A DNA stretch of 64,000 bases from an uncultured Gammaproteobacteria bacterium. GTDB lineage: Bacteria; Pseudomonadota; Gammaproteobacteria; JABCZS01. The notes under the pieces are model-generated. The model made no database searches, had not been told where the DNA came from, and saw only the letters and a program-made list of their open reading frames with translations. The DNA is taken from assembly GCA_963848305.1 (NCBI GenBank), contig CAWKDC010000001.1, positions 768,001-832,000 of the forward strand, read 5' to 3'. Shown in pieces: positions 1 to 19,591 of this stretch (positions are counted from its first letter, which is position 1; every line of letters begins with the position of its first letter). Made by a program: the position numbers and the translations under genes.

Positions 1-469
1 TTTCATGCACTCCTGCACCGCCGACGCGAACGAAATGATAATCTTCTTGTTCATCATCAAAATGATCAGAAATCTTGAATTCATGACGCAATGGAAACTT
101 GTCTTTTGGCCACGCGCTGTGCCGTAACCATGGTCTATCATCTTCTGATCCGAGTGCTTTAAATCCCAACAAATCATATATTGAACGTTGCAACCTATGA
201 GCCACAGGAAATAATCCGCTCAAATCTGGGTAACAGGGATCGTTCGATGAGAGCATACATCGAAGATAAAGTGTCTCTTTCTCCCAAAATACAAAAAACA
301 AATGTAAGACAAAACCTGAATATTGTGCTCTTTCATCACTCCCCCAAAGAGCGAGAAGTTCTCCCTTCTCATCCGCAATGTGAGTCAAAATTTCGTATAA
401 ATCACTCAGAATAACATCCATTTCCCAACAAGGCCAATCACAAAAAACTTTTCTAGCATTGATATTCAT
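1..469 (-). CDS. hyfG: Hydrogenase-4/Ehr large subunit (HyfG/HycE-like, NuoC-NuoD type), 5' part only; runs off the window edge
   Basis: Not in the ORF track. Translated by hand from ATG at 469 (ATGA overlap with the hyfF stop): MNINARKVF...YPDLSGLFPVAHRLQRSIYDLLGF...RPWLRHSAWPKDKFPLRH...YHFVRVGGAGVHE, open to position 1. Typical NuoC-like region; position after hyfF fits. Confidence 0.85.
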   Translation of the reverse strand, partial: MNINARKVFCDWPCWEMDVILSDLYEILTHIADEKGELLALWGSDERAQYSGFVLHLFFVFWEKETLYLRCMLSSNDPCYPDLSGLFPVAHRLQRSIYDLLGFKALGSEDDRPWLRHSAWPKDKFPLRHEFKISDHFDDEQEDYHFVRVGGAGVHE

Positions 470-1899
470 GACAATAGACTCATTAAGTAAAGGATTGACA
501 ATCCACCCGCAGCCAACAAAATTAAGTGAAAAGACACTGGCAAATAACTGGCGCGAATATCAGACACAACCAATTGTGGTTCAGGTGCATAAAAAACCAT
601 TCGCTGGACATGAAAAGCCATCGCTGAAAATGCGATCATCAAACCGATAGCCAATGGGATGCTCAGCCAGAAATGTTGTTGAATAGTAATCAATATAATG
701 AATAGTTCGCTGATAAATAATGGGAACGGAGGAAGCCCCATTAATGCGAATGCACTCAATAGCAATCCCCAGCCAATGCGTGGTGAGTCTTTGGCTAAGT
801 CAGTGATTTGGTTCATCAGCGTATTCGCTCGCAACTGAATTGCTGAGCCAATGCTGAAAAAAGCGGCTGTTTTTGCCAACGAATGCGACAGCATATGCAA
901 AAATCCAGCAAAAATGGCCAATGGTGTCCCTAGTCCAAATGCAAAAGAGATGATGCCCACATGCTCAATGGATGAATATGCGAATAATCTTTTTACTTCA
1001 CGTTGCCTGAGCATAAAAAGTGCTGATATGATAATATTCAATAATCCAAATACCATCAAACACATGCCTGCAAACCCATCAGTCATTGCACCATCAACAA
1101 TCACCTTAAATCGATAAATAATATAAAGCGTGACATTGATTAAAACACCCGACAGCAACGACAGCACAGGCGCCATACTTTCACCATAAACATCCGGCAA
1201 CCAATTATGCAATGGAATGAACCCTGCCTTGGTTCCATATCCTATCAATATAAAGACGAATGCCAAGCCAAGGATCGGTTCGGATAGAAGATGACTGATG
1301 CCATTAATCTCTGTGAAAAGGAGTGCATCATTTGCTGAAAGTACCTTTTCGGTCGCAAAGAATAACAAAATAGTGCCGAGCAATGCCTGAGCCAACCCTA
1401 AACCGCAAATAATAAGGTATTTCCACGCTGCTTCCAGGCTCTTTGAAGACCGGGACACTGTCACCAATAAGACTGTGCACAGCGTGGCACACTCCATACC
1501 AACCCATACAATCCCAAGGTTATTTGATAATAATATCAGGGATGCTATAAAGAAGAAAAATTGATATAACGGGTAAAAATAGCGTCCGTTGAAACGGGGA
1601 TCCTGCAGACTAAACCGCTCGTGCGATAAATATTTCACGCAATATATTGCAGTGGTAGTACCTATTAAATTCATCGATAGGATCAACATGCTGCTGATAG
1701 TATCAACATAGAACCATTTATTCATAGCTAAAACAGGACCTGTGTCAAAAACCTTAATCACAAGAAAAATAGATATGATGAACGACGTCACACTGGACAC
1801 AATATTGATAGCATTGGCTCCCCTTCTTTCGCCGAGGAAAAGCAGAAGGCCAGCGCCTATGACAGGTATGAGTAATAGTAACAACATCAGTATCATCAT
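466..1899 (-). CDS. hyfF: Hydrogenase-4 component F (proton-translocating antiporter-like subunit)
   Basis: Polytopic membrane protein with SLEAAWKY, GYGTKAGFIPLHNWLPD, KRLFAYSSIEH and HSLAK motifs; operon order. Confidence 0.9.
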   Translation of the reverse strand: MMILMLLLLLIPVIGAGLLLFLGERRGANAINIVSSVTSFIISIFLVIKVFDTGPVLAMNKWFYVDTISSMLILSMNLIGTTTAIYCVKYLSHERFSLQDPRFNGRYFYPLYQFFFFIASLILLSNNLGIVWVGMECATLCTVLLVTVSRSSKSLEAAWKYLIICGLGLAQALLGTILLFFATEKVLSANDALLFTEINGISHLLSEPILGLAFVFILIGYGTKAGFIPLHNWLPDVYGESMAPVLSLLSGVLINVTLYIIYRFKVIVDGAMTDGFAGMCLMVFGLLNIIISALFMLRQREVKRLFAYSSIEHVGIISFAFGLGTPLAIFAGFLHMLSHSLAKTAAFFSIGSAIQLRANTLMNQITDLAKDSPRIGWGLLLSAFALMGLPPFPLFISELFIILITIQQHFWLSIPLAIGLMIAFSAMAFHVQRMVFYAPEPQLVVSDIRASYLPVSFHLILLAAGGLSILYLMSLLS

Positions 1900-2561
1900 T
1901 AATCTTCCCGAAGCTTTTCCAAATGACTTAGGTCAAAACTTTCAAAGCTTTCATTGATTTTAAAAAAGAACACGCCAAAAATGAAGAGCGCAACCAACAC
2001 ATCAAATGCAATACCGAGCTCGACAATCAATGGCATACTATAGGGTGAACTGCTTGCAACAAAAAACAAACAGTTTTCCAGTGAAAGCAGACTCACGACT
2101 TGTGATATCGCCTTTCGCTTGATGATCATCATGAATGAGGATATCAAAACGCTCGCCAACGATAATGCTAACATTGTCGGCACAGCGCTGTGTGAAATAC
2201 TTTGAATCGGAAAACTGAGGTAAAATGCGAAGATCACCAGTGACAGCCCAATCAGCAATGTTGTCGATGTATTCACCAAATTTTCAATTTTCGACCGTAT
2301 ATTCAATTTGATGAGAATGCGATACAGGACAAATGGAATTAAACCGACTTTCATTCCCAACGTCAGCAGTACAATCAAGTACAGCTCCTTATGATCCATG
2401 AAATACGCCACCATGGCCGTATTAACACTCAGCACTAAACCCTGTAATGACAACAGCCGTATTAAACCCAACATTCTTCGCTGAACCAACATGGAGAAGG
2501 TGATCAGCAATATCATGGCGGCAAAAAAATGTATCATTGACGGCAAAAAATACATACTCAC
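1899..2561 (-). CDS. hyfE: Hydrogenase-4 component E
   Basis: 220-aa membrane protein with RKAISQVVSLLSLEN and PLIVELGIAFDVLVA; lies between hyfC and hyfF. Confidence 0.88.
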   Translation of the reverse strand: MSMYFLPSMIHFFAAMILLITFSMLVQRRMLGLIRLLSLQGLVLSVNTAMVAYFMDHKELYLIVLLTLGMKVGLIPFVLYRILIKLNIRSKIENLVNTSTTLLIGLSLVIFAFYLSFPIQSISHSAVPTMLALSLASVLISSFMMIIKRKAISQVVSLLSLENCLFFVASSSPYSMPLIVELGIAFDVLVALFIFGVFFFKINESFESFDLSHLEKLRED

Positions 2562-3520
2562 TCCATTGGTATCAATTGAATTAAAACACCCAACATCGCA
2601 AGTACAAACGCAATGGTTAGAAATTCTGGCACACGAAACAATCGCATTTTCGCTGAAACAACTTCAAACATGACAAGCCCCGCGCACATGATTAATATCT
2701 TGACGACAAAATATAGAAAGGCAACGGTGATTCCTATCATAGATATAGGGTGACTCAGACCCCAAGGGAAAAACAGCGCAATAGCGATGGTAAAATAGTT
2801 CAGTAATTTAAGATACGATGCCCACTCAATGAATGCAAGTTGTCGGCCAGAGTATTCAAGAGTAATCGCACCATGGATCATAGTCAGTTCCAAATGCGTT
2901 GATGGACTGTCAATAGGATTCCGTGCATTCTCGGCCAACAAAACCATGAAATAGGCAACGCCTGCGAATGCCAGGCTCGGATTGAGTGTCAGTGTTTGAA
3001 GATGCATCATCTGCACAATACGGCCTAAATCTGTGGAGTGGCATATCAATGCAATATTGAGAAAAACAATCAGCAATGCTGGCTCTGCGAGGAATGATAC
3101 CAGCATTTGACGACGCGCACCCATAGTGCCGAACGCAGTGCCCACATCCATTGCAGCAAGCGATAGCATGATTCGAGCAAAAGAAAAAACACCAGCTAGG
3201 ACAATCACATCTGCAATTTTATTGAGTGACATTCCAGCAATAAAAACAGGTACAATAAATGCCACAAGGCACATAAGTGAAAAATACAGATAAGGAACAG
3301 TTCTATAAAGTGGCGAAGCATTTTCCGCTAAAACAGTCTCCTTTGAAAACAATTTACGCAGATCACGATAAGGTTGAATAATTCCCGCGCCAGATTTATT
3401 CCCCATCCAGGCGTGTCCCTGACGGATCAAGCCTATTAATAGCGGAGCGATAGCCACCATGGCAAGACCTTGAAGCAATTGGATGAAAAACAACATTATC
3501 ATTGCCATAATGTCCACCAT
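2558..3520 (-). CDS. hyfC: Hydrogenase-4 component C (NuoH-like)
   Basis: QPYRDLRKLFSKE, AENARNPID, HLELTMIH and LEYSG motifs. Exact start uncertain. Confidence 0.9.
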   Translation of the reverse strand: MVDIMAMIMLFFIQLLQGLAMVAIAPLLIGLIRQGHAWMGNKSGAGIIQPYRDLRKLFSKETVLAENASPLYRTVPYLYFSLMCLVAFIVPVFIAGMSLNKIADVIVLAGVFSFARIMLSLAAMDVGTAFGTMGARRQMLVSFLAEPALLIVFLNIALICHSTDLGRIVQMMHLQTLTLNPSLAFAGVAYFMVLLAENARNPIDSPSTHLELTMIHGAITLEYSGRQLAFIEWASYLKLLNYFTIAIALFFPWGLSHPISMIGITVAFLYFVVKILIMCAGLVMFEVVSAKMRLFRVPEFLTIAFVLAMLGVLIQLIPME

Positions 3521-5454
3521 AATAATAGCAGCAGCGTGATAAAACTATAGAGCAGGTAATGATTGATTCGACCGTCCTGCATTTTTGATACCCATTTAGC
3601 AAGATGATCGATCAGTTGTAACATTGGCAAATAAAGACCCTGCCAAAACTTGTCTTCCATATGAGCATGGTATTGTGGATTTTTATCACCAGGTTCAGGT
3701 GCAGAAACCCTGGCATGAACAAACGCCCGAAAAATATGTTTGATAGGCTGCCCCATTCCCTCTGCAGTGTCTTGCATCCGAGCATTTTGCCGAGGAAATC
3801 CACCATCCCACGCAGGAACACGACGGTCATTCCATCTGTATAATCGTCTAATCGATAAATAAGAAAGCAGCATGATAGTACAAATAAGTAACAATATCAT
3901 TCCTGGACTATATGAAGATTGTGCTATTGTTGACGTCACTGTCAATAATGGGTTTTCACCATCAAATAGTTTGAGATAAGATGCGCCGAATTTTTTTGCC
4001 ATGAAGGGTGACAGGGTCTTGAGTAAAACTATTGGCATAACCCCAAGCAACACACAAGCTGCTGCTAGCCAACCTAAACCCAATCGTTCAAGATAGGACG
4101 CATCTATTGCTTTTACCAATGTTGATTCCCTGGGTTTTCCCAGAAAAATGATTCCATAAAATTTAACCATCACATAAGCACCTAATCCCATCGTCAGCGC
4201 AAACATACCGGCCATGACTGGGATCAACATATTTAAATAAAGAGGCTGGATTTTGGGAGAAAACAAATAAGATTGCAATAACAACCACTCCCCTAAAAAA
4301 CCACTGAGCAAAGGAATGCCAGAAATAGCTAATATGCCCACTAAAACCAATGCCGAAACCCAGGGCATTTTGTTAATCAGGCCTCCTAATTTTCCAAGAT
4401 TTCTTTCACCTGTCGCATGTAACACCGAGCCTGTTCCCAAAAACAATAAACTTTTTGTCAAAGCATGATTGAAAGAATGAAATAATGCCGCTGTGAGTGC
4501 CAACCCAGCCATCAAAGGTTGTGAAGATGCATAAAACATTAATGCCAAACCTATCGCAGCAAAAATAATGCCACCATTTTCAATAGACGAATATGCCAAT
4601 AACCTTTTCATGTCTGTTTGCATGGCCGACATCACAACCCCAAAAAACGCTGTCCCCGTCCCTAACATTAAAATGACCAGTCCCCATAATTGATGCGGCG
4701 CATTGAGCAAATCAAACACAAAACGTATGAGTCCATAAATGCCCATTTTCAACATCACCCCACTCATCAGCGCAGCAATGGGCGATGACACTGTAGAATA
4801 AGCTTCTGGCGCCCACAGGTGAAATGGCAGCATACCCGCTTTAACACCAAATCCGATCAGAATGCAAATGAATACAGTTGTTGCATAAAAGGGCGAAAAG
4901 TGCGCAGCTCTCATTGCACTGAAGGATGTGGCATCCGCGCCATGGACCATCACCGCGAAACCAATAAAAAGAAATAACGCACCCATGTGCGTCATCAAAA
5001 AGTATAGAAAGCCTGCTCGAAGTGTTTCAGTGGAATTGTTTGTGGTAGCAATCATGAGATAAGACGATATTGACATCAATTCCCACCCAATGAGAAATTG
5101 AATGGCATTGTCTGCCATTAATATCCACACCATGCTGGCTATGCATACATGATACAGTAAAAATAATACGCCTTTTTTAGGCGTCATCAGATGATTAAAA
5201 TAATGGCTCGAAAACAAACCGATGCCTATGGAAACCATGCTCATTAATAATAGAAAAAATGCGGACAATGCATCAAGCTTAGGATGTCCGATCCCAAAGC
5301 AGGATACCACCAGCAGTGCTACACTGCCTAAAGTACTCATCAAAAATAGACATGTTAAATATTTTTCATATCGCTGTAATAGCACGAGACCTGCAACACC
5401 CAGCATACACCAGTAAATACTGATGCCAGCAATGAATGTGAGCGGATATATCAT
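3499..5454 (-). CDS. hyfB: Hydrogenase-4 component B (antiporter-like subunit)
   Basis: WELMSISSY, GFGVKAGMLPFHLWAP, KRLLAYSSIEN and RMQDTAEG motifs; first gene of the cluster. Confidence 0.9.
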   Translation of the reverse strand: MIYPLTFIAGISIYWCMLGVAGLVLLQRYEKYLTCLFLMSTLGSVALLVVSCFGIGHPKLDALSAFFLLLMSMVSIGIGLFSSHYFNHLMTPKKGVLFLLYHVCIASMVWILMADNAIQFLIGWELMSISSYLMIATTNNSTETLRAGFLYFLMTHMGALFLFIGFAVMVHGADATSFSAMRAAHFSPFYATTVFICILIGFGVKAGMLPFHLWAPEAYSTVSSPIAALMSGVMLKMGIYGLIRFVFDLLNAPHQLWGLVILMLGTGTAFFGVVMSAMQTDMKRLLAYSSIENGGIIFAAIGLALMFYASSQPLMAGLALTAALFHSFNHALTKSLLFLGTGSVLHATGERNLGKLGGLINKMPWVSALVLVGILAISGIPLLSGFLGEWLLLQSYLFSPKIQPLYLNMLIPVMAGMFALTMGLGAYVMVKFYGIIFLGKPRESTLVKAIDASYLERLGLGWLAAACVLLGVMPIVLLKTLSPFMAKKFGASYLKLFDGENPLLTVTSTIAQSSYSPGMILLLICTIMLLSYLSIRRLYRWNDRRVPAWDGGFPRQNARMQDTAEGMGQPIKHIFRAFVHARVSAPEPGDKNPQYHAHMEDKFWQGLYLPMLQLIDHLAKWVSKMQDGRINHYLLYSFITLLLLLWWTLWQ

Positions 5455-5657: not shown

Positions 5658-6401
5658 ATGATAACACGCAGCAAAATGAATCAATCCCTCAATCATCCAG
5701 ATACAAAACGAGCATACAATAAGGATTTATTCACAGCTGTTGCAAAAAAATATGCAATCGTCACAAAATTATTATCATTTGGTTTTGACGGTGCCTGGAA
5801 GAGGTCACTGGTTAAACAATTACCAGCGCTCGAATCGCCCCATTGTCTCGATTTGGCCTGCGGCACTGGAGATATTGCAATATTACTGGCGGCACGTTAC
5901 CCGCAAGGTCACATCATTGGTGTGGATATCACGCCAGCGATGCTGGCAGTAGCACGGGCAAACAATATTTCGGATCATTTGACATTTGTCGAGGCAGATA
6001 TGAACATCCCCCCTGTCGCGGATCAAAGCATGGATATCATCACTGGAGGATATGCATTACGCAACTCGCCCGATCTTGACCAGTTATTGCAAACCATATG
6101 GAACAAGTTGAAGCCTGGTGGTATTGCAACTTTTCTTGATTTTTCTAAATCAGATGAACTAAACGCACAGCGATGGCAAATGCGTTTGTTAATGTTCTGG
6201 ACAGGCTTGTGCAGCATTCTCTTGCATGCTAATCCAACAGTCCATCATTACATACCCGCCAGCTTGAAATCATTTCCAACGAGAAAAGAGCTACAAAACA
6301 AAATTGAACATATTGGATTTACACAATTCACATCGTGCTATCACCACAATGGCTTTATTGCCAGGATTTCTTTTGTAAAACCAATCAATGAGGCATCATG
6401 A
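5658..6401 (+). CDS. UbiE/MenG-like class I SAM methyltransferase
   Basis: LDLACGTGD motif I, N-terminal LLSFGFDGAWKR, GGYALRN; AAGGA upstream. Confidence 0.8.
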   Translation: MITRSKMNQSLNHPDTKRAYNKDLFTAVAKKYAIVTKLLSFGFDGAWKRSLVKQLPALESPHCLDLACGTGDIAILLAARYPQGHIIGVDITPAMLAVARANNISDHLTFVEADMNIPPVADQSMDIITGGYALRNSPDLDQLLQTIWNKLKPGGIATFLDFSKSDELNAQRWQMRLLMFWTGLCSILLHANPTVHHYIPASLKSFPTRKELQNKIEHIGFTQFTSCYHHNGFIARISFVKPINEAS

Positions 6402-6402
6402 C

Positions 6403-7140
6403 TCAGTTCCCAAATATTGCATAGGGTTTCTTTTTTACGAATGCCCAATATCGGTCGCCATACGACCAATGCCAATATTCTGTGGGATAATTGACAAAAC
6501 CGACATCTTCCAATGCTTTTGACATGATGCGACGATACTTGGTCGCCACAGGTGATATCTTTTTAGAATGAGTGATTGAAAGCGATCCGTCCATGTCTTT
6601 CATCCAATCTTCTGTGAATATGCCCATGTCCACCCTATTTCCTTTCGCATCAATCAAATAAATATCAACAGCAGCGCCTGTCGAATGAGGTGGAATATTT
6701 CGTGATCCATCTTGATTGATGACTGGAGAAACCAATTTTGTGGTTTCCATGAATATCGCTTGATCGTTCATATCAGGATGCGCTGATTTCAGATCATGAT
6801 AATGCTGATTAAACAGTTGTTCTTGCAGCGCGAGACTGCGATAGGCTTCATAAATGCAAAACCGCAATCCATCAGGCAACGTTTTTTGTGCTTGCACCAA
6901 TTTTTCATAAACAGATTGACGCATTTTTGTATAATCCCGATTATCTTGTATTTCAGGAGAGGCCCCAAATGCTAACACTGTTTGATCACGTAAATCAATC
7001 ATAAGCTCATGATTATCATGGATAGGGATTTGCAAAACAGCAGGATCAGCAATCAATGTGATTGTTTTTGTGGGAATCGTTTTGAAAACGAGCAATCCAA
7101 GCAAGAATGCTCCACAGATAATCAGTATTTTTTTCATCAT
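6403..7140 (-). CDS. D-Ala-D-Ala dipeptidase, peptidase M15 (VanX/DdpX-like), with an N-terminal signal or anchor
   Basis: YEAYRS, PHSTGAAVD and EYWHWSYGD zinc motifs; hydrophobic N-terminus; GGAG RBS. Confidence 0.88.
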   Translation of the reverse strand: MMKKILIICGAFLLGLLVFKTIPTKTITLIADPAVLQIPIHDNHELMIDLRDQTVLAFGASPEIQDNRDYTKMRQSVYEKLVQAQKTLPDGLRFCIYEAYRSLALQEQLFNQHYHDLKSAHPDMNDQAIFMETTKLVSPVINQDGSRNIPPHSTGAAVDIYLIDAKGNRVDMGIFTEDWMKDMDGSLSITHSKKISPVATKYRRIMSKALEDVGFVNYPTEYWHWSYGDRYWAFVKKKPYAIFGN

Positions 7141-7163
7141 TGCTCCTACTACGATGGTTCACC

Positions 7164-7182
7164 TAGGGGGAAAATTCACCTA
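7164..7182. promoter_or_regulatory. 19-bp palindromic box 1 (TAGGGGGAAAATTCACCTA)
   Basis: Matches the island consensus TAGGGGA-N5-TCCCCTA; TAAGAT -10 at 7204-7209 (21-nt gap). Confidence 0.7.
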
Positions 7183-7249
7183 ATATTTTATCAAAAAATC
7201 AAGTAAGATGCCTGGGTATGATACTTCCATCAAAGAGAGGGCTTCGGCC

Positions 7250-7432
7250 ATGAACTTGCATCCTAATGATTATAATCAGAATATGACGTCTGAAAACACG
7301 TGTCGTACAATGATACTATACAGTAATCCGGATTCAATCATTAAAAATAAACGATATAACGAATATGCTCACTCTAAAAATCAATGCCGTACGATGATTC
7401 TCTATCAAGACCCGATGGGCCGTGCTCAATAA
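7250..7432 (+). CDS. 60-aa peptide with a duplicated CRTMILY motif
   Basis: GAGAGG RBS before ATG 7250; internal repeat with a 28-codon period; the two CRTMILY cores differ only at synonymous positions. Confidence 0.7.
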   Translation: MNLHPNDYNQNMTSENTCRTMILYSNPDSIIKNKRYNEYAHSKNQCRTMILYQDPMGRAQ

Positions 7433-7460
7433 AAATGTGAATAAACCAGGGGACTGGTAT

Positions 7461-7712
7461 ATGAAGCTATTGAACACTCTTCTTGTCTTATCAGGCTTCG
7501 CACTCCTCGGTTCGCTAGGTTCTAAAATAATGCATGACCGAGAACAAACGAACGCTGCAGCAGAAATATTGAACGGTCTCAAAGAACTAACGCATTTAAT
7601 GGATAACATTCGCGAAGAGTGGGATATCTCGTTCACCGAGTTAGAGAACATTTTTAATGAAAACCGTGCTGGTAAAGAATCGTTAAAACGAGAAAATAGG
7701 TCATTATATTAA
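7461..7712 (+). CDS. Small hypothetical protein with an N-terminal hydrophobic helix and a helical C-terminus
   Basis: GGGGA RBS before ATG 7461; MKLLNTLLVLSGFALLGSLG. Confidence 0.55.
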   Translation: MKLLNTLLVLSGFALLGSLGSKIMHDREQTNAAAEILNGLKELTHLMDNIREEWDISFTELENIFNENRAGKESLKRENRSLY

Positions 7713-8240
7713 ATTGATGAGACCTCGCTCAATGGCCTGCATGATAAGCTCTGAGCGTGATTCGCAATGCAATTTTGATTTGACTGTGTCTAAATAATGT
7801 TCCACTGTTTTAGCGGATAATCCCAGTGCATCACCGATTTGTTTCATCGTCATACCCAGTGCAAGGTGTTTTAAGCAGGCTGTTTGTTGTTTGGTGAGTG
7901 GAATCATGGCGCGAGCGCTGACAGGAATAGAAATGCCCTGAACACCCAATACTTTTCCATAACTTCCTATCAACGGAAATTTAATGCTGCGATAAATTTG
8001 AGGATTACCTTTGTATAAACCTCTTTCATAAAAACAATCCATGCTGCGCGTTATCATGATGCGTTGATCATTCTGCATCATTAAAGTACCTACATCAGCC
8101 CATTTGAGATCTAAATCCGTTGTACCAACCAGCTCATTAAGACTATTTAGGTCAGATGCGGCCAAAAAAACGGCATCTCCGAATAAATACTTGCCCTTAT
8201 TATCTTTTGAATAACAGGCTTTGAATGATATATTTGCCAT
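7704..8240 (-). CDS. PAS-domain + LuxR-type HTH transcriptional regulator (copy 1)
   Basis: N-terminal PAS-like region (YSKDNKGKYL...LVGTTDLDLKWA...KFPLIGSYGKVLGVQGIS); C-terminal LTKQQTACLKHLALGMTMKQIGDALGLSAKTVEHY. Start moved to ATG 8240 because of a GGAG RBS and the promoter position. Confidence 0.9.
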   Translation of the reverse strand: MANISFKACYSKDNKGKYLFGDAVFLAASDLNSLNELVGTTDLDLKWADVGTLMMQNDQRIMITRSMDCFYERGLYKGNPQIYRSIKFPLIGSYGKVLGVQGISIPVSARAMIPLTKQQTACLKHLALGMTMKQIGDALGLSAKTVEHYLDTVKSKLHCESRSELIMQAIERGLINLI

Positions 8241-8270
8241 CGTTGCGCTCCGCTGACCAGACACTTGAAC

Positions 8271-8299
8271 AGTGTACCAGAGTGGATGAAAGATGTCAA
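8271..8299 (-). promoter_or_regulatory. Sigma70 promoter of PAS-LuxR copy 1
   Basis: TTGACA-17 nt-TACACT on the minus strand, with TG extension. Confidence 0.75.
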
Positions 8300-8358
8300 A
8301 ATAATATTATATTATGAATCAATAAGATATGCAATGCATTTGGCTGCGCAGCTTATAA

Positions 8359-8377
8359 TAGGGGGGAATCCCCCCTA
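8359..8377. promoter_or_regulatory. 19-bp palindromic box 2 (TAGGGGGGAATCCCCCCTA)
   Basis: Near-perfect palindrome; TAAAAT at 8401-8406 (23-nt gap) before the GNAT gene. Confidence 0.8.
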
Positions 8378-8434
8378 TTTCTCTTTATCCTCATTTTAGA
8401 TAAAATGATGCAAACCGAATCATACTGAAGGCAC

Positions 8435-8916
8435 ATGATGGGCACACAGATTAGAAAAGCGACGATCAATGACAGCGACACTATCCTTACCTTCATCAAA
8501 GAACTGGCTGAGCATGAACAATTGGCACATGCTGTTGTAGGGTTGAGCAAATCCAAAAAACGCTTTTTTGTGACAACCCAAAAGTTGAGGCGCTGATAAT
8601 AGAGGAAGATGGACAGCATGCGGGTTTTGCATTATTCTTCCACAACTATTCTACTTTTTTATGTCGACATGGCATTTATGTTGAAGATATCTATGTGCGT
8701 GAACAATACCGTGGCAAAGGGTACGGTAAATCGTTGTTAAAGCATATTTGCAAATTGGCCATTGAACGTGATTGCGGTCGCGTTGAATGGTGGTGCCTGG
8801 ATTGGAATAAGCCGTCTATCGATTTTTATTTGAGTTTAAATGCTGAGCCGATGACGGATTGGACTGTGTATCGCTTGAATAGAGCGAAATTAGAGGTCCT
8901 TGCTTTGAAGACGTAG
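8435..8916 (+). pseudogene. Spermidine/diamine N-acetyltransferase-like GNAT, frameshifted near 8540
   Basis: MMGTQIRKATINDSDTILTFIKELAEHEQLAHAVV in one frame continues as VEQIQKTLFCDNP...GFALFFHNYSTFL...EDIYVREQYRGKGYG...EWWCLDWN in another frame. Confidence 0.8.
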
Positions 8917-9339
8917 ATATTATTGTATTTCTGTACAAATACATCAATATTAATCCAACAAGCACGCAAGCCAATAAAGTCAAAAGAACAATGCTGTTGT
9001 CATGAGCATTTTCACTGATTTTGGACGAATTGTTGCTTGAAAAGCTCTCGATCCCCATGTCATCATTCGAATGATGATCAATGTTCTTCTCATCTGATTT
9101 TTTGATAGCAAAACCAATGCTAACTAATACCCCAATCCATAATATAATGACACCCAAAATTATTGCGGCATTTTGTTCATTTCATAATCTGAAACTTTCT
9201 CGCTTTTATCTTGATCATCTATAGATTGCCTATTTTCATCTTCATCATGAATGGTGCTCACATATCCCGCCGGGCTTGGACTTCGCCACCAATGCGTATG
9301 TGTATCAAATGGCATGACATCACCGGTTTCAAAATACAT
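8816..9339 (-). CDS. Hypothetical 2-TM membrane protein, apparently split by a 1-nt homopolymer deletion near 9181
   Basis: GAGGAGAGG RBS before ATG 9339 (MYFETGDV...). Adding one A at TATGAAATG joins it to the tracked ORF 8816-9157. Confidence 0.5.
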
Positions 9340-9387
9340 ATCCTCTCCTCAGCAAAATATTCAGGCTCATGAAGCATGATCTCTTCA

Positions 9388-10209
9388 TTACTTATTGTGA
9401 TTCCTATTTAAAGTCGAAGCTGTCGAACGAGATGATTCCTCATCCGACCAAAACATTGAAAGGGATTCTTCAGTCGCCCAATAGTGACATGAACCTTCTG
9501 GATGAGTCAACAAAGTATTTGAAAATTGCTTGATTGACTCGAGTCTTGCTGATCTACAATCCATACCCGAAGCTCGCAAACCGGAGTCTATATATGTAAG
9601 CTCAACCGTATTAATGCTATCAAGTTTCTCGATAAACTCTGCATCAACAAACTGCCACGCACCGTCAGCACACTCGATGAAATCGCATGCATGTTCTCTG
9701 ATCATCTTCATGAATTTTAGCGCATTGTCATTGGTACCCTTCCACGGATCCCCAAAGAAACGTTCTATCCATTCATCCGCTTTCTCCTCAGGATATTTGA
9801 CCGTCTTTACCTTGTTACGCGTCATTGCATCAGACAAATTGATGAGAAAATCAATGACCTTATCTTTCAAATGGGCAGGAACTGTTATACCTTTTTGAAC
9901 AGATTCATTGACTCGAAACAAAACAGCATCTTTGAGATATGCTAAAAAAATTGTTCTTGAATCGACACTTGTCTTGCTCCAATTTGTTTTCTGTGCACGG
10001 TTACAATGCCACTGAATGAGTGTTGGTAACGCGTATGTCGCCATTTGAGCACAACATACAAATTGTTTTGAATTAACTACCTCTAATGCCATACTAATAG
10101 AAAATATGGCTGCCTCGGCACCCGGCAATGCAAGCATGTCATTCATTTTACATCTTTCATCAAATGCCTTCTGGCACTCAGCCACTGTTTTATTATGGTC
10201 AATCTTCAT
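9388..10209 (-). CDS. Hypothetical effector-like protein
   Basis: Long ORF; AGGAG RBS before ATG 10209; no recognisable domain; C-terminal EESLSMFWSDEESS... tail. Confidence 0.65.
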   Translation of the reverse strand: MKIDHNKTVAECQKAFDERCKMNDMLALPGAEAAIFSISMALEVVNSKQFVCCAQMATYALPTLIQWHCNRAQKTNWSKTSVDSRTIFLAYLKDAVLFRVNESVQKGITVPAHLKDKVIDFLINLSDAMTRNKVKTVKYPEEKADEWIERFFGDPWKGTNDNALKFMKMIREHACDFIECADGAWQFVDAEFIEKLDSINTVELTYIDSGLRASGMDCRSARLESIKQFSNTLLTHPEGSCHYWATEESLSMFWSDEESSRSTASTLNRNHNK

Positions 10210-10267
10210 GGTGTTTCTCCTGTTCATATTTATTGCTGAATGATATATCATTTTTCTAGTTTTAATA

Positions 10268-10286
10268 TAGGGGATTTAATCCCCTA
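10268..10286. promoter_or_regulatory. 19-bp palindromic box 3 (TAGGGGATTTAATCCCCTA), bidirectional
   Basis: TAAGAT at 10308-10313 on + (21-nt gap) and TATCAT at 10245-10240 on - (22-nt gap), between divergent genes. Confidence 0.85.
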
Positions 10287-10340
10287 TTTTTATTTAAAAT
10301 AATTGTGTAAGATAGCTTTAATTCGCGCGAGGAGTTTACA

Positions 10341-11294
10341 ATGAAAAATCCTGAATTAATGAGGCAGCTTTTTACAGCCATAGATGAAATGGATATGGAT
10401 GAGATTAGTGGTATTATCACAAAAAATAAAGATTTTAACATTAATGAACACAACCCAGATGAAACTTCTGTTTGCACACCCCTGATTGCTTCGATAGAAA
10501 TTAACAGCGAGGAATTATTTTTATATTTACTTAAACATGGGGCAAGCGTTGATATCGCTGATAAAAACAACAGAATGCCACTCTCGTATGCTGCTTCAAT
10601 TGATAATAATGAATATTATGTGAATCGTATTTTAACATTGACCCAAAATGTTAATCACCGTGACAATGATGGAAAAACAGCGTTACATCACGCGGCTTCA
10701 AGAGGTCGTTCAATTATCGACCTCGTCAATTATGGAGCGGATGTCACTATCGCTGATAATGATGGTAATATCCCTTTAGATATTGCTATTCGCTGCAACC
10801 ATAGCAACGTTGTTAGTCAACTTTTTTATTATACTTTGTCATCTGCAAAATTGAATAACCCTAAGGCTTTCCTAGACAAGTATAACAAAAACATAAACCA
10901 AGATGCGGTGATTCTTTTGAATCGTAATTTAATTGCAAACACTAAAGACAGGTTTGACAAAATAAGACTGTTACAAGGTGCATTGTCACAATCCACACCA
11001 TTTGGATGGTATTTAAATAATTTGAAAACAGAGAAGGCGTTTGAAGCGAAAAAACTCCTGCAGTCGAATCTTGGAAAGCTACTCGAAGTAACAGGGTATA
11101 ATCAATTCATAGAAGAACAAAATAAACCCGTAGAGTCTCCTGTATTCAACGCATATCAACCAACGGCTGCACAAACAACTACCGAACAAATCCTAAAGAG
11201 AATGGACGAACAAGATCAGCGGATCCTTGCATTGGAAAATGAAGTGAAGCGGTTATCTGAAAAACAGGGTAACGCAAGCAATTTCTCAATATAA
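10341..11294 (+). CDS. Ankyrin-repeat protein with a C-terminal coiled coil (candidate secreted effector)
   Basis: TPLIASI, MPLSYAA, GKTALHHAA, GNIPLDIA repeats; GAGGAG RBS. Confidence 0.85.
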   Translation: MKNPELMRQLFTAIDEMDMDEISGIITKNKDFNINEHNPDETSVCTPLIASIEINSEELFLYLLKHGASVDIADKNNRMPLSYAASIDNNEYYVNRILTLTQNVNHRDNDGKTALHHAASRGRSIIDLVNYGADVTIADNDGNIPLDIAIRCNHSNVVSQLFYYTLSSAKLNNPKAFLDKYNKNINQDAVILLNRNLIANTKDRFDKIRLLQGALSQSTPFGWYLNNLKTEKAFEAKKLLQSNLGKLLEVTGYNQFIEEQNKPVESPVFNAYQPTAAQTTTEQILKRMDEQDQRILALENEVKRLSEKQGNASNFSI

Positions 11295-11314
11295 TCACAT
11301 ACAGGAGCTACAAC

Positions 11315-11788
11315 ATGTTAAAAGATATCGAAAAGAATCTCATCAAGGCCTTGGCCAAAGATTACGATAAATTAATGAATCGGGAAGATAAACGCAAAAT
11401 ACAAAGTTTTCTGGTAGATCGAATTTACCAACCGTCACCGAGTGCGGTGACGTTTATGGAAAATATTTGTCGCATTATTCATTGTACTACTGTCGAAGCA
11501 GATGGTGAAAATGCTGTTCTTCATGCGCAAAAAACGCGATCACTGTTGGTCGCTCTCACTCAAGAATATCCTGGCGTACGTCAGAATTTAGACTCTATCA
11601 TTGCTAAAGAAAAGAAAACCAGCAATTTTACTGTTAGGCCTGATAGCAGCATGAATTCGTTTATCTGCGCTGCTGTAGCGAATAGCATTCTGGTGGATGC
11701 GCCGCTTATTTTTGATAAAATATATCCTCTGACTGACGATGCCAACAAATTTCTACTCAAGCAGGAAAATATTTATGTGGCAATCTGA
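11315..11788 (+). CDS. Hypothetical protein
   Basis: 157-aa ORF, AGGAG RBS, co-oriented with the ankyrin gene. Confidence 0.65.
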   Translation: MLKDIEKNLIKALAKDYDKLMNREDKRKIQSFLVDRIYQPSPSAVTFMENICRIIHCTTVEADGENAVLHAQKTRSLLVALTQEYPGVRQNLDSIIAKEKKTSNFTVRPDSSMNSFICAAVANSILVDAPLIFDKIYPLTDDANKFLLKQENIYVAI

Positions 11789-12803
11789 CGAAATAGAAAG
11801 TTTATCTCTTGATGAGTTTATTGAAAGCAGAAAACTCCTCACGCGCTCAACAGACACGCATCTCACTGATCGCGTACAAATCAGGTTGGAATTACAAAAC
11901 AATGCCATTCATGAGAATACACTCATCAAATCAATTGTCATTACAAAATATGATCTCAGATCAGATTATCATTTTTTCATTCATGCAATAGATGAGAAGG
12001 CTTTTGATGAACTTCAAAAACGGATGGGGCCATCGCATTTCTGGGAATATGACAATCATTCAAGGAAATTTTCACGAATATGTCTTGTCACGCAAGACAA
12101 CAAGCTTATTGCATTCATGTTCAATAAGATCATTCAGATTGAAAAGTGCTTTGAAAAAGATTTGCCTAAAGTATCTTCTACTATTGGGTTCTCTACAACA
12201 GATGCATACGAACAAGCACCCGAATGGATTCAAGTGGGTAATTTTAATAAAGCCATTTATCATGCAAAAGGCATCGTATCAGAAGTCTCGCATCGATGTA
12301 CAGATACTGATAAGGGCATTCATGAAATATCCTTAACCAGACTCATCTATTCTCAATTTGCATTGAGAATAACAGTGAAGTCCCTTAAAGAGCATGAAAT
12401 GCTTGAATCACTGCTCGGAAAACCAGAACATACTACTCCACCTATTATTATGCTGTACCAATGTCATGGCAAGGATATCCAATTACTCTGCGATAAAATC
12501 AGCACATTTACCCAATACTTTCAAATCAAACCAATTGGCGACACATTGATTGCTTCTATCAAAAGCTCCATGGAAACTATTGATGAAGTACAACAACGTG
12601 TTCAACCATCACTCCATAAAACACATGCTGAATTGGCTGCGGAGACTGCTGAATTTCTTAAAACTGTCTACGGTGGGCCAAGCACCCTCATCCCACAATT
12701 TTTCCGTGCCCCCGCAGCTGTTGGACGTCAACATATTCTTAGCGTGGAAAAGGTGATGAATAATATTCATGGATCATCAGGCAATAAAATGGAGAAAAAA
12801 TAA
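11775..12803 (+). CDS. Hypothetical effector-like protein
   Basis: Long ORF; likely start MWQSDE (AGGA upstream); C-terminal PQFF motif. Confidence 0.65.
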   Translation: MWQSDEIESLSLDEFIESRKLLTRSTDTHLTDRVQIRLELQNNAIHENTLIKSIVITKYDLRSDYHFFIHAIDEKAFDELQKRMGPSHFWEYDNHSRKFSRICLVTQDNKLIAFMFNKIIQIEKCFEKDLPKVSSTIGFSTTDAYEQAPEWIQVGNFNKAIYHAKGIVSEVSHRCTDTDKGIHEISLTRLIYSQFALRITVKSLKEHEMLESLLGKPEHTTPPIIMLYQCHGKDIQLLCDKISTFTQYFQIKPIGDTLIASIKSSMETIDEVQQRVQPSLHKTHAELAAETAEFLKTVYGGPSTLIPQFFRAPAAVGRQHILSVEKVMNNIHGSSGNKMEKK

Positions 12804-12811
12804 AAAAGCAC

Positions 12812-13354
12812 CTACAATACGTCAATAAGCCCGCGCTCAATAGCCTGCATGATCAGCTCTGAACGTGAATGACAACGCAATTTTGTTTTGACAGTATCTA
12901 AATAATGTTCAACTGTTTTTTGCGCCAAGCCCAAGTGATCGCCGATTTGTTTGTGTGTATTTCCCAGGGCCAGAAATTTCAAACAAGCAGTTTGTTGTTT
13001 GGTGAGGGAAATCAAGCAACGCTCACCTACAAGCACAGAAACACCATGAATACCAAGCACCTTGCCGGTATTACCAATAATAGGTGCCTTGGTCGCACGA
13101 TAAATCTGAGGTCTGCCTTGATATAAGCATTTTTCATAAAAAATATGGTTTTTGCGTGTTTGCATCACTTGAGCGTCATTACCAAGGTAAATCTGCGCAA
13201 ATTGCGCCCAGGGAAGCTCTGCATCTTTCCGCCCTACGACGTCATCCATCTTGTTTGCGCCAGCGGCAGTTAGCAGATCCTCGTTAATAGCCATATAATA
13301 ACCTGAATCACTCTTGGTGTAGGTCGCATAAAAACTGCTAACTTCCTCAATCAT
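12812..13354 (-). CDS. PAS-domain + LuxR-type HTH transcriptional regulator (copy 2)
   Basis: PAS-like region (YTKSDSGYY...VVGRKDAELPWA...KAPIIGNTGKVLGIHGVS); HTH nearly identical to copy 1; GAGG RBS. Confidence 0.9.
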   Translation of the reverse strand: MIEEVSSFYATYTKSDSGYYMAINEDLLTAAGANKMDDVVGRKDAELPWAQFAQIYLGNDAQVMQTRKNHIFYEKCLYQGRPQIYRATKAPIIGNTGKVLGIHGVSVLVGERCLISLTKQQTACLKFLALGNTHKQIGDHLGLAQKTVEHYLDTVKTKLRCHSRSELIMQAIERGLIDVL

Positions 13355-13384
13355 ATAATATTACCTCAACGCGAATATTTAGCT

Positions 13385-13413
13385 AGTTTACCAAGTCTAT
13401 AGAGTTTTGTCAA
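13385..13413 (-). promoter_or_regulatory. Sigma70 promoter of PAS-LuxR copy 2
   Basis: TTGACA-17 nt-TAAACT on the minus strand, with TG extension. Confidence 0.75.
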
Positions 13414-13448
13414 TAAACAATTTTATCGAATTGCAGAGGAATATGCAC

Positions 13449-13467
13449 TAGGGGAATTGATCCCCTA
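13449..13467. promoter_or_regulatory. 19-bp palindromic box 4 (TAGGGGAATTGATCCCCTA)
   Basis: Consensus match upstream of PAS-LuxR copy 2; no + strand gene follows. Confidence 0.8.
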
Positions 13468-13491
13468 TTACTCATAATTAAAAGAAGGTGC

Positions 13492-13752
13492 AGGCCGCAG
13501 GGCTGTAAGATATTAGCCTGGGGCATTGCCCCAGGTAAATATTAAATGATTAGAAGGAGGGCTGAAGGTACGTCACTTTTTATAGCATGAAGTACGTACC
13601 CGTTGTCATATAATACTAGGATTATCATTCCTTCTTGTCATTTTCTTCTTTCGCACTTTCAGCGCTCAATGCATTCTCTCATACATTTCCCAGGGTGACG
13701 GTTCGCTACGCGCACCTCACCCTGGGCTACAAGCTTAAAGGCCTTGCGGCCT
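13492..13752. mobile_element. Non-coding inverted-repeat element (REP/REPIN- or MITE-like)
   Basis: Ends AGGCCGCAGGGCT and GGCCTTGCGGCCT are inverted (11/13). Internal hairpins CCTGGGGCATTGCCCCAGG and CCCAGGGTGA...TCACCCTGGG. GC-richer than flanks; no ORF. Confidence 0.6.
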
Positions 13753-13791
13753 TAAGTTGAATAGTAACAAGATTTTTGTCATATCTAAATT

Positions 13792-14283
13792 TCATCGTTC
13801 AATACCAATATATATGTCCAATATTGTATTATGAGGGTCAATTGCGCGTTCATCATAGACCTCAAAATCAGCGCGATACACCCTGGTACCTGATAATTCA
13901 TCGGGTGTCATTCCCCAAATTTTTTGCCATAACTGTATGCATACCTGCGGCATTGCGCCTGGACCTGTTGTGAATTTTGAATAAGTTTGCGCAGGGATAG
14001 TCAACGCGACGCAACCTTCTGGCAGATCAGCGAATGACGTCACTTCCTCGCCGATGAAGTAAGTATAATCACCTGTCATATCACTTGCATAATCTGTATA
14101 GACACAAAATGTTTTACCTGGATTCTTCCGTTCAGTTATTTTTGCATTCAACGCTCTAGAAAAATATCTGTGTAAACATTGCCCAATTTTAGCTGTTTCA
14201 GGGTTCATTTCATGGGCATTGTTCGTTCTTTCTGAAATCCCAACCAGCTTAATGTCTTTAAACTCCATTATTTCATGTTTCAT
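13792..14283 (-). CDS. GyrI-like small-molecule-binding (AraC effector-binding/Cass2) protein
   Basis: LVGISERTNN, CVYTDYASDMTGDYTYFIG, RADFEVYDER, DIYIGI. Confidence 0.88.
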   Translation of the reverse strand: MKHEIMEFKDIKLVGISERTNNAHEMNPETAKIGQCLHRYFSRALNAKITERKNPGKTFCVYTDYASDMTGDYTYFIGEEVTSFADLPEGCVALTIPAQTYSKFTTGPGAMPQVCIQLWQKIWGMTPDELSGTRVYRADFEVYDERAIDPHNTILDIYIGIER

Positions 14284-14338
14284 CGCTTTGTCTCCCTCGC
14301 AATCAATTATTTCAAGATTCTATTCGGATTATTCCCTG

Positions 14339-14413
14339 TTGACAACCATACCAGCAACCGCTAAAATCAGTCAACCCTATTCGAGGAACTTCGCCATGAA
14401 AATATCTGCTTAA
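14339..14413 (+). promoter_or_regulatory. Sigma70 promoter plus leader uORF MKISA (14396-14413) upstream of the ABC-F remnant
   Basis: TTGACA-17 nt-TAAAAT at 14339-14367; GAGGA RBS then ATGAAAATATCTGCTTAA. Confidence 0.65.
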
Positions 14414-14457
14414 GTCGCCCTATCAACCATTCCCCTGGTTCACTTAAGAGAGATATC

Positions 14458-14914
14458 ATGCCGCACAAACCCTTTAAAATCAATCAAATCAGCATCTCAT
14501 ATCCGCACAAAATCTGTTTCGAGGACTTCAGCGTGGAAGTCCCTTATGGAAGCCGCATTGCGATTATTGGGCGCAATGGCAGCGGTAAGACAAGCCTGCT
14601 GCGTCTTTTGCGTGATACCGTCAAGGTGCCTGCCGGGTACGTGCCCCAGGTGATTGAGGACTTCGAGAACCAGAATGGTCGCATTCATGTTTTCACAGGC
14701 AATTATGATGATTATATCCGCTAACACACCGAAGCTTTTGATCCTAGATGAAATCACCAATAACCTCGATCTTGAAACAAGACAACATGTGATTGAGGTG
14801 TTGCAAGCTTATCCAGGCGCTATGATAGTGATATCGCATGATGAGGATTTCTTAGAGATGATCAATATCACTGATTATCACGTATGCAACAACCATTCAT
14901 TACTGAAAAAATAG
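14458..14914 (+). pseudogene. Internally deleted ABC-F ATPase
   Basis: Walker A GRNGSGKT and GYVPQ, then the inter-domain FTGNYDDY, then (other frame) second-NBD LLILDEITNNLD...IVISHD. Most of the protein is missing. Confidence 0.8.
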
Positions 14915-14958
14915 CATCTGAAAATATTATTATGGCATCACTTTAACAGGAGTATCTC

Positions 14959-15888
14959 ATGACACACCGCTGGAAACAAACCATCAACATCGACGAAGAC
15001 TTGGTTCGCACTTTATTGCAGTCGCAGTTTTCAATGAATGCATCCCATATTCAATCATTGGATGCTGGCTGGGATAATTCAGTCTATCTCATCGATGATG
15101 AAGTGATTTTCCGTTTCCCACGCCGTGAATTTGCACTGCCATGCATGACACATGAAATTGCGATTCTGCCTTATATTGCTGATCAAGTGCATTTTAAATT
15201 GTCATCGCCACAATGGATTGGACAGCCGTCCGATATCTACCCTTACCCTTTCGCCGGTTACCCGATTTTGCCAGGGAAATCATTATGTGATGTATTCGAC
15301 GATTTGATCGATGATAAGGCTTTCGCAGAAACACTTGCACTTTGGCTCAAGGAATTACATAGAGTGCCCGTACGTGAATCTGATATAACGTTACTGGCAA
15401 ATTCTCAGCAATGGCGATTGGATATTAGCCATCGTATCAAACTTTGCCATGAAAATTTGGAGCAATATGCATCTTATTTTAATGAAGCTGGATTCACTCG
15501 AGAGAACATATTAAAGTCTATTGACAAGATGTCTGAGCTTTCATTTATTGAGCAGAAAAAATGCTATGTTCATGGCGATTTGTACCACCGACATATCATC
15601 GTTGATCCTGCTTCAAGACAACCGACGGGGTTGATTGATTGGGGTGATGTTCATATCAGCGACCCTGGGATTGATATATCTGTGGGGATGATATTCACGC
15701 CTGTCGTCTTTCGACATTTTATTGATGCTTATGGCGGGGTAAGCGAATCCTCGCTCAACATCTTACGACTGAATGGCTTTGCGCACGCCGTGAGCTTTTT
15801 GGCTTATGGGTATGAGCAAAATAGGCCGTCACTCAAGCGCTGGGCAGGGCTGCAATTGAGGAGAACAATCGAGGAATTGGGGGGATAG
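14959..15888 (+). CDS. Aminoglycoside phosphotransferase (APH)-family kinase
   Basis: GWDN, FRFPRR, VHGDLYHRHII and GLIDWGD motifs. Confidence 0.88.
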   Translation: MTHRWKQTINIDEDLVRTLLQSQFSMNASHIQSLDAGWDNSVYLIDDEVIFRFPRREFALPCMTHEIAILPYIADQVHFKLSSPQWIGQPSDIYPYPFAGYPILPGKSLCDVFDDLIDDKAFAETLALWLKELHRVPVRESDITLLANSQQWRLDISHRIKLCHENLEQYASYFNEAGFTRENILKSIDKMSELSFIEQKKCYVHGDLYHRHIIVDPASRQPTGLIDWGDVHISDPGIDISVGMIFTPVVFRHFIDAYGGVSESSLNILRLNGFAHAVSFLAYGYEQNRPSLKRWAGLQLRRTIEELGG

Positions 15889-15904
15889 GGGAAATATCCC
15901 CGTA
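15571..15904 (+). repeat. Direct repeat copy A (APH 3' end plus box)
   Basis: Aligns without gaps to 19258-19591 (offset 3687). Confidence 0.9.
15886..15904. promoter_or_regulatory. 19-bp palindromic box 5 (TAGGGGAAATATCCCCGTA), overlapping the APH stop codon
   Basis: TG-extended TATCAT at 15929-15934 (24-nt gap). Confidence 0.7.
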
Positions 15905-15968
15905 TTGAGTAGCCATATTGATTGCTGGTATCATTGGTCTTGAGCCATTCCACATCGACGAGGTTTCC

Positions 15969-17161: not shown

Positions 17162-17218
17162 CAAAGGTTCCTCAGGGCTGTTACCTTTCAATTGTAACAT
17201 CCTGCCTAATGCCTAGAA

Positions 17219-17237
17219 TAGGGTAATTTTTCCCCTA
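17219..17237. promoter_or_regulatory. 19-bp palindromic box 6 (TAGGGTAATTTTTCCCCTA), bidirectional
   Basis: TACGAT at 17259-17264 on + (21-nt gap) and TACAAT at 17196-17191 on - (22-nt gap). Confidence 0.8.
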
Positions 17238-17293
17238 ATATCAGCAAAAGCAATATGGTACGATGAAGAACTTAACATTGAGGAGTCATAACA

Positions 17294-18334: not shown

Positions 18335-18394
18335 TGGTCGCATCAGCCAATTTCTGTTATGATTTGGCAATAAACTTGTATCTAGGAGAAACCC

Positions 18395-19225: not shown

Positions 19226-19257
19226 CCACGCGAACATCAATCACTGGAGAATAGAAT

Positions 19258-19575: not shown

Positions 19576-19591
19576 CGGTATTTTTCCCCTA
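19573..19591. promoter_or_regulatory. 19-bp palindromic box 7 (TAGCGGTATTTTTCCCCTA)
   Basis: TG-extended TATGAT at 19613-19618 (21-nt gap). Confidence 0.72.

Follow-up and report, generated by a model that had tools for sequence, protein, structure and literature searches.

A reading frame with twin CRTMILY cores as a probable fragment of a box-preceded, 153-codon membrane-protein gene in an uncultured gammaproteobacterium

PluR and PauR of Photorhabdus are PAS_4-LuxR "solos" in which PAS_4 is followed by a GerE helix-turn-helix, and their palindromic operator overlaps the −35 region. The classic position of a LuxR-type activator site is centered near −42.5. Membrane-anchored anti-sigma or anti-activator proteins form a class of small bitopic regulators, and in multi-core modified-peptide precursors (e.g., the cyanobactin type) a short conserved core is repeated in one reading frame. 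In Legionella, RegK3, which has a PAS domain, and LexR1 are LuxR-type local regulators encoded beside effector genes, and such regulators are described as acting via inverted repeats at a fixed distance from the −10 sequence of the adjacent effector genes (Adler and Segal 2026, PMC13555631).

The locus described here lies in a window of 64,000 nucleotides, which is the whole stretch of DNA that was analyzed. The window is held by contig C1 (1.58 Mb) of a 1.89-Mb genome in 4 contigs. Among the Dot/Icm genes, DotI/IcmL was matched with E = 4e-55 and DotH/IcmK with E = 2.5e-46 but in two frames, and a search for IcmQ gave no match here, nor in any control genome. The host is probably a Dot/Icm-bearing, Legionellales-like bacterium. 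The icmK/dotH gene (G000:C1:920666-921368, loci L022 and L023), which is located outside the window, consists of two adjacent Pfam-matching pieces in different frames, and the frame junction falls at a G-run beside ATGATGATG, representing either an assembly indel or a broken secretion system. Within the window, a GNAT acetyltransferase gene (8435-8916) shifts frame in an A6 run at 8554-8559, and the frame 8557-8916 continues as a typical GNAT.

The twin cores and the extra T at 7416

The translation of the frame 7208-7432 gave 74 residues, which hold the stretches YNQNMTSENT-CRTMILY-SNP and YNEYAHSKNQ-CRTMILY-QDP. The start was called at ATG 7250 in three sources (P0002, P0003, and P0005), which gives 60 residues in the window. 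A preliminary description of this ORF, made from the letters of the window, had reported the twin stretches, the spacing of 28 codons between their CRTMILY cores, and a ribosome-binding site; the first two agree with the translation, and the site was found as GAGAGGG. The corresponding features are as follows.

7235..7241, + strand: ribosome-binding site GAGAGGG, 8 nt 5' of ATG 7250, as read from the sequence
7301..7321, + strand: CRTMILY core, copy 1
7385..7405, + strand: CRTMILY core, copy 2, 28 codons from copy 1

The two copies of the core differ at 5 of the 21 bases, and every one of these differences is at a third position and synonymous, with no non-synonymous difference, exactly as had been described before. 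In 200,000 simulations of five changes, the probability that all five random changes were synonymous was P = 8.5e-5, in support of the earlier statement that the stretch is protein-coding and that its motif is conserved as protein. In the flanks of the 28-codon unit, only 19 of the 42 bases and 5 of the 14 residues are identical between the copies. Because the flanks have drifted this far, the duplication is old, and the combination of drifted flanks with cores that carry silent changes only indicates that selection on the protein has maintained the core. A search of the six-frame translation of the genome with four patterns revealed no further exact or near-exact CRTMILY motif.

In the cluster of the protein encoded downstream of the ORF (83 residues), a second member, P0005, was found. 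This protein has 153 residues, is derived from a Logan contig of 4545 nt, and consists of residues 1-55 of the peptide, two further residues, and all 96 residues of the frame 7422-7712. The uninterrupted counterpart thereby covers both ORFs exactly (55 + 96 residues). At the junction, a single codon of P0005 corresponds to four bases in the window, of which the T at 7416 is the extra one. Ten public runs from 5 studies were listed for the locus, with no RNA run among them. When the contigs of four public runs were compared over 6400-8400, a contig of run X1 was found to span 7239-7475 with exactly base 7416 missing, i.e., the same base that is absent from P0005; its depth is 4.1, and a difference in a single contig under depth 5 may be an error. 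The contigs of X5 are identical to the window but do not cover base 7416. The parts of the gene in the window are listed below.

7250..7414, + strand: codons 1-55 of the 153-codon gene, encoding the N-terminal domain with the 28-codon repeat unit; identical to P0005 residues 1-55
7416..7416, + strand: extra T, after which the frame shifts and ends at TAA 7430-7432; absent from the X1 contig and P0005
7419..7712, + strand: codons 57-153 and the stop codon, in another frame; the 96 residues of 7422-7712 are identical to the end of P0005

Compared with P0005 and the X1 contig, which are uninterrupted and independent of each other, the window carries one extra base, T7416. Together, these results make it highly likely that the ORF 7250-7432 is a fragment of a box-preceded, 153-codon membrane-protein gene (7250-7712). 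The ORF is a real coding stretch, as had been proposed, whereas its stop at 7432 is not a natural gene end. The start and stop of the short ORF are also not kept in relatives: P0005 and X1 read through the stop of the window, and P0003, a relative from a second lineage, runs past it too. Being a fragment of the 153-residue protein represented by P0005 and the X1 contig, the ORF does not stand as the free microprotein that it had been taken for, and the 7461-7712 protein, which had been considered as its partner, is included in the same 153-residue protein. The preliminary description had itself named a case against its reading, in which the ORF proves to be a fragment of a longer known repeat protein; the ORF is indeed a fragment of a longer protein, but the latter is neither known nor a long repeat protein. 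As a stand-alone discovery, the microprotein matters little, because it is the effect of one extra base. A caution for similar cases is that short conserved ORFs beside small "partner" genes should be compared with uninterrupted forms in other assemblies.

The extra T is either a real mutation or an assembly error. The icmK and GNAT genes are also frame-shifted, at homopolymer runs, which favors an assembly error at T7416. On the other hand, T7416 is located outside any homopolymer and is therefore not a typical assembly error, and the 44 kb of housekeeping genes to the right (20-64 kb of the window) show long unbroken ORFs, which indicates that the assembly is not riddled with indels. The position outside a homopolymer, the unbroken right-hand 44 kb, and the gene remnants in the island favor a real change.

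The X1 strain differs from the window in further respects. At window positions 7464-7475, just before the sequence encoding the membrane helix, it has about 45 apparent extra letters flanked by a 12-base duplication; by eye, this insertion is in frame and without a stop, and it would add 19 residues to the protein. In addition, the X1 strain is mosaic relative to the window: over the M15 peptidase gene, 36 differences were counted in 418 bases, but over the LuxR gene only 14 in 937.

Relatives, domains, and predicted topology

A word-index search with the peptide yielded one relative, P0003 (89 residues). Over the peptide, P0003 shows 84% identity with both cores retained, and a hydrophobic segment follows. 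HMMER yielded P0007 (60 residues), which shows 59% identity to P0005 residues 96-149 (E = 2.4e-10). Each of them is on an ENA contig of 9625 nt, and the two are very probably encoded on one contig. In this second lineage, two proteins (89 and 60 residues) are called for the gene, and the break between them falls behind the membrane helix. The likeness of the P0003 tail to the frame 7422-7712 was undetected by BLASTP (E = 13) and was seen in the global alignment only. When P0003 was used for residues 1-72 and P0007 for the C-terminal domain, the identities between the lineages were 10 of 17 in residues 1-17, 36 of 38 in residues 18-55, 8 of 17 in residues 56-72, and 32 of 57 in the C-terminal domain. 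The twin-motif domain is therefore the best-kept part of the protein.

The split could also be real and tolerated, the 60-residue twin-motif peptide and the 83-residue membrane protein being made separately and working together, with a free microprotein as the outcome. Such a situation would agree with the good ribosome-binding site and the ATG (7461) that follow the break, with the long and unbroken ORFs at 20-64 kb and the location of T7416 outside a homopolymer, and with the two called proteins of the second lineage, whose cut lies elsewhere and suggests that the parts may be separable. However, the presumed separate 83-residue protein falls inside 7419..7712, where ATG 7461 and the ribosome-binding-site-like AGGGGA before it (7448-7453) encode ordinary residues of the intact gene; the Met at 7461 is not conserved in P0003, and two near-identical forms of the gene are unbroken. 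A tolerated split is thus considered unlikely, and the ORF continues to be treated here as a fragment of the 153-codon gene.

Searches for further relatives were largely negative. None of the 60 related genomes contained a relative of the peptide (best E = 0.038), and beyond P0003 none was found in genome contigs, viral contigs, plasmids, or the longer-protein search. A weak match in G001, a genome of the same genus, was discarded, there being no related ORF at that place, and a match in a metagenome contig proved to be false, being in the wrong frame within a longer ORF on a GC-rich contig. The downstream protein of 83 or 96 residues had no match in 11 genomes of the family, and in the 5.8-billion set it found itself alone. 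No family for the 153-residue protein was found in Pfam, NCBIfam, PADLOC, or the PDB sequences, and sub-threshold matches to DUF829 and zf-LSD1 were disregarded. The best score in the ESM Atlas was 0.78, and the N-terminal domain by itself gave no match there. When 1.84 billion representatives were scanned exhaustively with HMMER, the window's own two pieces, P0007, and two long repeat proteins, P0006 (1891 residues) and P0008 (471 residues), were recovered. The latter two were rejected: single matches of about 28 bits and about 30% identity had been summed over 10 and 6 repeats, respectively, both proteins are highly repetitive, the alignment of one runs over the membrane helix, and the Cys-containing core is missing from both. 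A single match in Rfam was a chance match, far under the gathering score. The family that had not been recognized from the letters was accordingly not found in Pfam, NCBIfam, PADLOC, the PDB sequences, the ESM Atlas, or the HMMER scan either.

The remaining part of the protein comprises the following two segments.

7467..7523, + strand: single hydrophobic membrane helix, P0005 residues 73-91; hydropathy of the best 19-residue window, 1.65
7524..7709, + strand: C-terminal helical acidic domain (9 K+R, 13 D+E), residues 92-153

The first 55 residues make up an N-terminal domain in which a 28-residue unit carrying the invariant CRTMILY core occurs twice, residues 73-91 would form one membrane helix, and residues 92-153 would form an acidic helical C-terminal domain. 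Because the protein has a single hydrophobic stretch, of about 19 residues, and its N-terminus does not resemble a signal peptide, it is predicted to be single-pass (bitopic). The N-terminal flank of the helix contains 3 K+R and 1 D+E and the C-terminal flank 2 K+R and 3 D+E; because the N-terminal flank is the more basic, the motif domain is predicted to be in the cytoplasm and the C-terminal domain outside. Two AlphaFold models of P0005, one from the single sequence and one from three rows, had pLDDT values of 51 and 49, and both placed one long helix, at 66-95 or 66-91, with low confidence. They agree only on coarse features, namely that each MIL(Y) core forms a short strand and leads into a short helix, that there is one long membrane helix, and that the C-terminal part is helical. 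The pLDDT values make the strand pairing and the topology weak. From their conservation, the two cores may be short strand-forming contact sites for a partner.

The preliminary description had also considered a multi-core precursor of a modified peptide, that is, a ribosomally made, post-translationally modified peptide (RiPP) precursor with two core peptides. The short ORF with its two identical, conserved, Cys-containing cores would suit such a precursor, but the uninterrupted frame runs on into the membrane helix and a further domain, 98 further codons following the second core domain, and the spacer that separates the cores is conserved to the same degree as they are. In addition, a Pfam scan of 7 neighboring ORFs revealed an M15 peptidase, a UbiE-type methyltransferase, and the GerE regulator, with no other family above the curated cut-off and no modifying enzyme. 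A RiPP precursor is therefore extremely improbable, and the 153-codon membrane-protein gene is the reading that is pursued below.

Boxes, regulators, and the surrounding island

The sequence between the upstream region of the gene and the divergent GNAT gene contains the following elements.

7164..7182, no strand assigned: box 1, TAGGGG-N7-CACCTA, which departs from TAGGGG-N7-CCCCTA at one position and is presumably an operator for the PAS-LuxR regulators
7204..7209, + strand: −10 hexamer TAAGAT, 21 nt 3' of box 1; the upstream ATG 7208 lies within the hexamer
7704..8264, − strand: LuxR-type regulator 1, 186 residues, GerE E = 1.9e-13; convergent with the 153-codon gene, the 3' ends overlapping by 9 nt
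8359..8377, no strand assigned: perfect box between the regulator gene and the divergent GNAT gene

The presence of box 1 upstream of the ORF, which had been noted before, was confirmed as a palindrome at 7164-7182 that resembles the operator of the neighboring PAS-LuxR family, and its mismatch falls in one half-site. In a genome-wide search with TAGGGG-N7-CCCCTA, all 3 perfect sites and 4 of the 7 one-mismatch sites were located at window positions 7164-19591, within 12.4 kb. These seven boxes begin at 7164, 8359, 10268, 13449, 15886, 17219, and 19573. Five shuffled genomes contained no perfect site each and 1 to 6 one-mismatch sites each, and two-mismatch boxes were not enriched (21 observed versus 45-59 in the shuffles). 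Perfect boxes were present in 4 of the 61 genomes searched, and 3 of these 4 (G000, G002, and G009) hold a LuxR of this family. A direct-repeat reading of the box, TTCACCTA-N9-TTCACCTA, was dropped in favor of the palindrome, the exact repeat occurring nowhere else in the window or genome. The region 8357-8379 was flagged as terminator-like by a scan; the interpretation of the boxes as terminators was rejected, 5 of the 7 being located in divergent promoter regions where no gene ends. A full-text literature search, judged by title, found no report of TAGGGG with LuxR in Legionella.

The spacing of 21 nt between the box and the −10 hexamer was observed at 4 of the 7 boxes in the window (7164, 10268, 17219, and 19573), the hexamers being TAAGAT, TACGAT, or TATGAT and lying on the side that faces a gene farther downstream. 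Beside LuxR homologues in other genomes, the same spacing was found at the one box of locus L014 (TATAAT) and at 1 of the 2 boxes of locus L015 (TAAGAT). The −10 site at 7204..7209 was not listed by a generic promoter scan. This spacing puts the box center near −42.5 and the transcript start near 7216, which in turn excludes the upstream ATG at 7208. Because the box stands at a fixed 21-nt spacing at several promoters and also in other genomes, activation of the 153-codon gene by a LuxR-type regulator is likely, as judged from the arrangement of these sites. The palindrome centered near −42.5 would replace the −35 element, and the promoter would depend on one of the two neighboring PAS-LuxR activators.

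PAS_4 was detected in 3 of the 5 members of the family alignment of regulator 1 (best E = 2.5e-12) and was absent from the copy of regulator 1 itself. The second LuxR paralogue (12812-13354, − strand) is 56% identical to regulator 1, and a perfect box is located about 95 nt upstream of each of the two regulator genes. LuxR homologues in other genomes show 59%, 47%, and 45% identity, and the nearest named relative is on a contig labeled "MAG: Legionella sp." (45% identity). We considered whether the 153-residue protein may be a membrane-tethered modulator of the neighboring PAS-LuxR, with the twin-motif domain contacting the regulator in the cytoplasm and thereby influencing the box-driven expression of its own gene. 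The two genes converge and overlap by 9 nt, the 153-codon gene appears to be under box control, and a regulator dimer could be engaged by the two identical cores. However, the loci of the homologues at 59%, 47%, and 45% identity have a box in 2 of the 3 cases but no such gene (4-kb flanks, ORFs of at least 60 residues), G002 and G009 are without a match to the peptide, and the second LuxR paralogue in the window has no such neighbor. This role is very unlikely on these grounds, and the earlier proposal of a free peptide that modulates the LuxR is not supported, the ORF being a fragment of the 153-residue membrane protein. A co-fold in which an alignment of 5 was used for the LuxR and an alignment of 2 for residues 1-70 of the protein scored 0.00, which counts neither for nor against binding.

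The GC content is 0.37-0.43 over window positions 1-22 kb versus 0.467 for C1. This low-GC stretch (1-22000) exceeds the box island and includes hydrogenase-4/NADH-dehydrogenase-like genes at 466-5454. An ankyrin-repeat gene (10341-11294) follows the box at 10268 and weakly matches Dot/Icm Ank effectors of NCBIfam below threshold (43 bits at best, cut-off 600), and several orphan membrane protein genes are also found behind boxes. Remnants of an ABC-F type ATPase are present as two short ORFs at 14458-14914, and an ABC-F type ATPase of 473 residues is encoded beside the LuxR homologue in L014. A partial phosphotransferase copy (19318-19575) is derived from the 3' end of a phosphotransferase-like gene (14959-15888). 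This copying is seen as a 300-nt direct repeat (15570-15869 and 19257-19556, 94% identical), with a box after each copy.

The seven boxes around the two PAS-LuxR paralogues may form a local regulon, in which the 153-codon gene would be one of several lineage-specific cargo genes of a low-GC island composed of a regulator and its targets. By analogy, the protein is probably a lineage-restricted cargo gene product of such an island, and its gene may be the LuxR-activated cargo of an island of the regulator-effector type. That the product itself is a translocated effector is doubtful. The 153-residue protein is among the best-defined predicted targets of the island, and its unusually well-kept internal repeat could be a handle for finding its partner.

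The 153-codon gene may instead be in the course of being lost from a degenerating accessory island, with neither piece functional in this strain. It is split in the window and called as two proteins in the other lineage, where the cut is at a different place, and may therefore be decaying rather than functional; other broken genes (the GNAT gene, the ABC-F fragments, and the partial phosphotransferase copy) are located in the island, and the 60 related genomes yielded no relative. In contrast, the motif domain is nearly invariant between the lineages (36 of 38 residues), both cores have withstood synonymous change to saturation, the geometry of the promoter is preserved, and the frameshift of the core gene icmK hints at assembly errors rather than decay. 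We regard such a loss as possible but not probable.

A bolder proposal would make the twin-CRTMILY domain a new kind of module for bivalent contacts, within a membrane protein under LuxR-box control that a Dot/Icm-bearing, Legionellales-like bacterium would use on its host or for tethering its own PAS-LuxR, and would allow the motif domain to act as a free peptide of 55-60 residues, i.e., a true microprotein generated by gene fission in this strain. If this were true, the three natural architectures (the uncut form, a cut in front of the membrane helix, and a cut behind it) would show that the motif domain can act as a free peptide. We consider this proposal quite unlikely. What remains is a small orphan protein of the membrane whose internal repeat is well conserved; its gene is probably under box control and is interrupted in this assembly by a single base. 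For the most part the finding is ordinary, and the LuxR-box island around it is of moderate interest.

Comparison with described systems

Multi-core modified-peptide precursors resemble the ORF in that a short conserved core is repeated within one frame. They differ in that the frame here continues into a membrane helix and a third domain, no modifying enzyme is adjacent, and the spacer between the cores is conserved too. The membrane-anchored anti-sigma and anti-activator proteins are similar to the 153-residue protein in their length of about 150 residues, the cytoplasmic N-terminal domain, the one membrane helix, the outer C-terminal domain, and the adjoining transcription factor gene, features that the protein here is predicted or observed to share. 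In contrast, the protein here has no sequence or profile match to any such family, and it does not co-occur with the LuxR family in other genomes. PluR and PauR share with the regulators here the domain order and the palindromic operator over the −35 region, whereas no ligand or synthase genes were recognized here and the target is an orphan membrane protein.

A further likeness, drawn in silico, is to the RegK3 and LexR1 islands of Legionella. In these islands, the targets adjoin the gene of a LuxR-type regulator whose N-terminal domain is sensory (a PAS domain in RegK3), an inverted repeat stands at a fixed distance 5' of the −10 sequence of the target, and the islands have low GC, apparent horizontal acquisition, regulator paralogues, and targets varying between genomes (PMC13555631). 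Here, GerE was found in the neighboring regulator and PAS_4 in 3 of the 5 family members, not in its own copy, and the fixed distance between the inverted repeat and the −10 sequence was seen in silico. The locus here likewise has low GC, regulator paralogues, and targets that differ between genomes, and it appears to be horizontally acquired. The bases mutated in the LexR1 element were GTC and GAC, whereas the box here is TAGGGG-N7-CCCCTA (PMC13555631). Moreover, the islands with RegK3 and LexR1 are in Legionella, whereas the host here belongs to an uncultured family, and perfect boxes here also precede both regulator genes. The logic of the island thus appears to match that of the Legionella regulator-effector islands, yet outside that genus and with a different operator.
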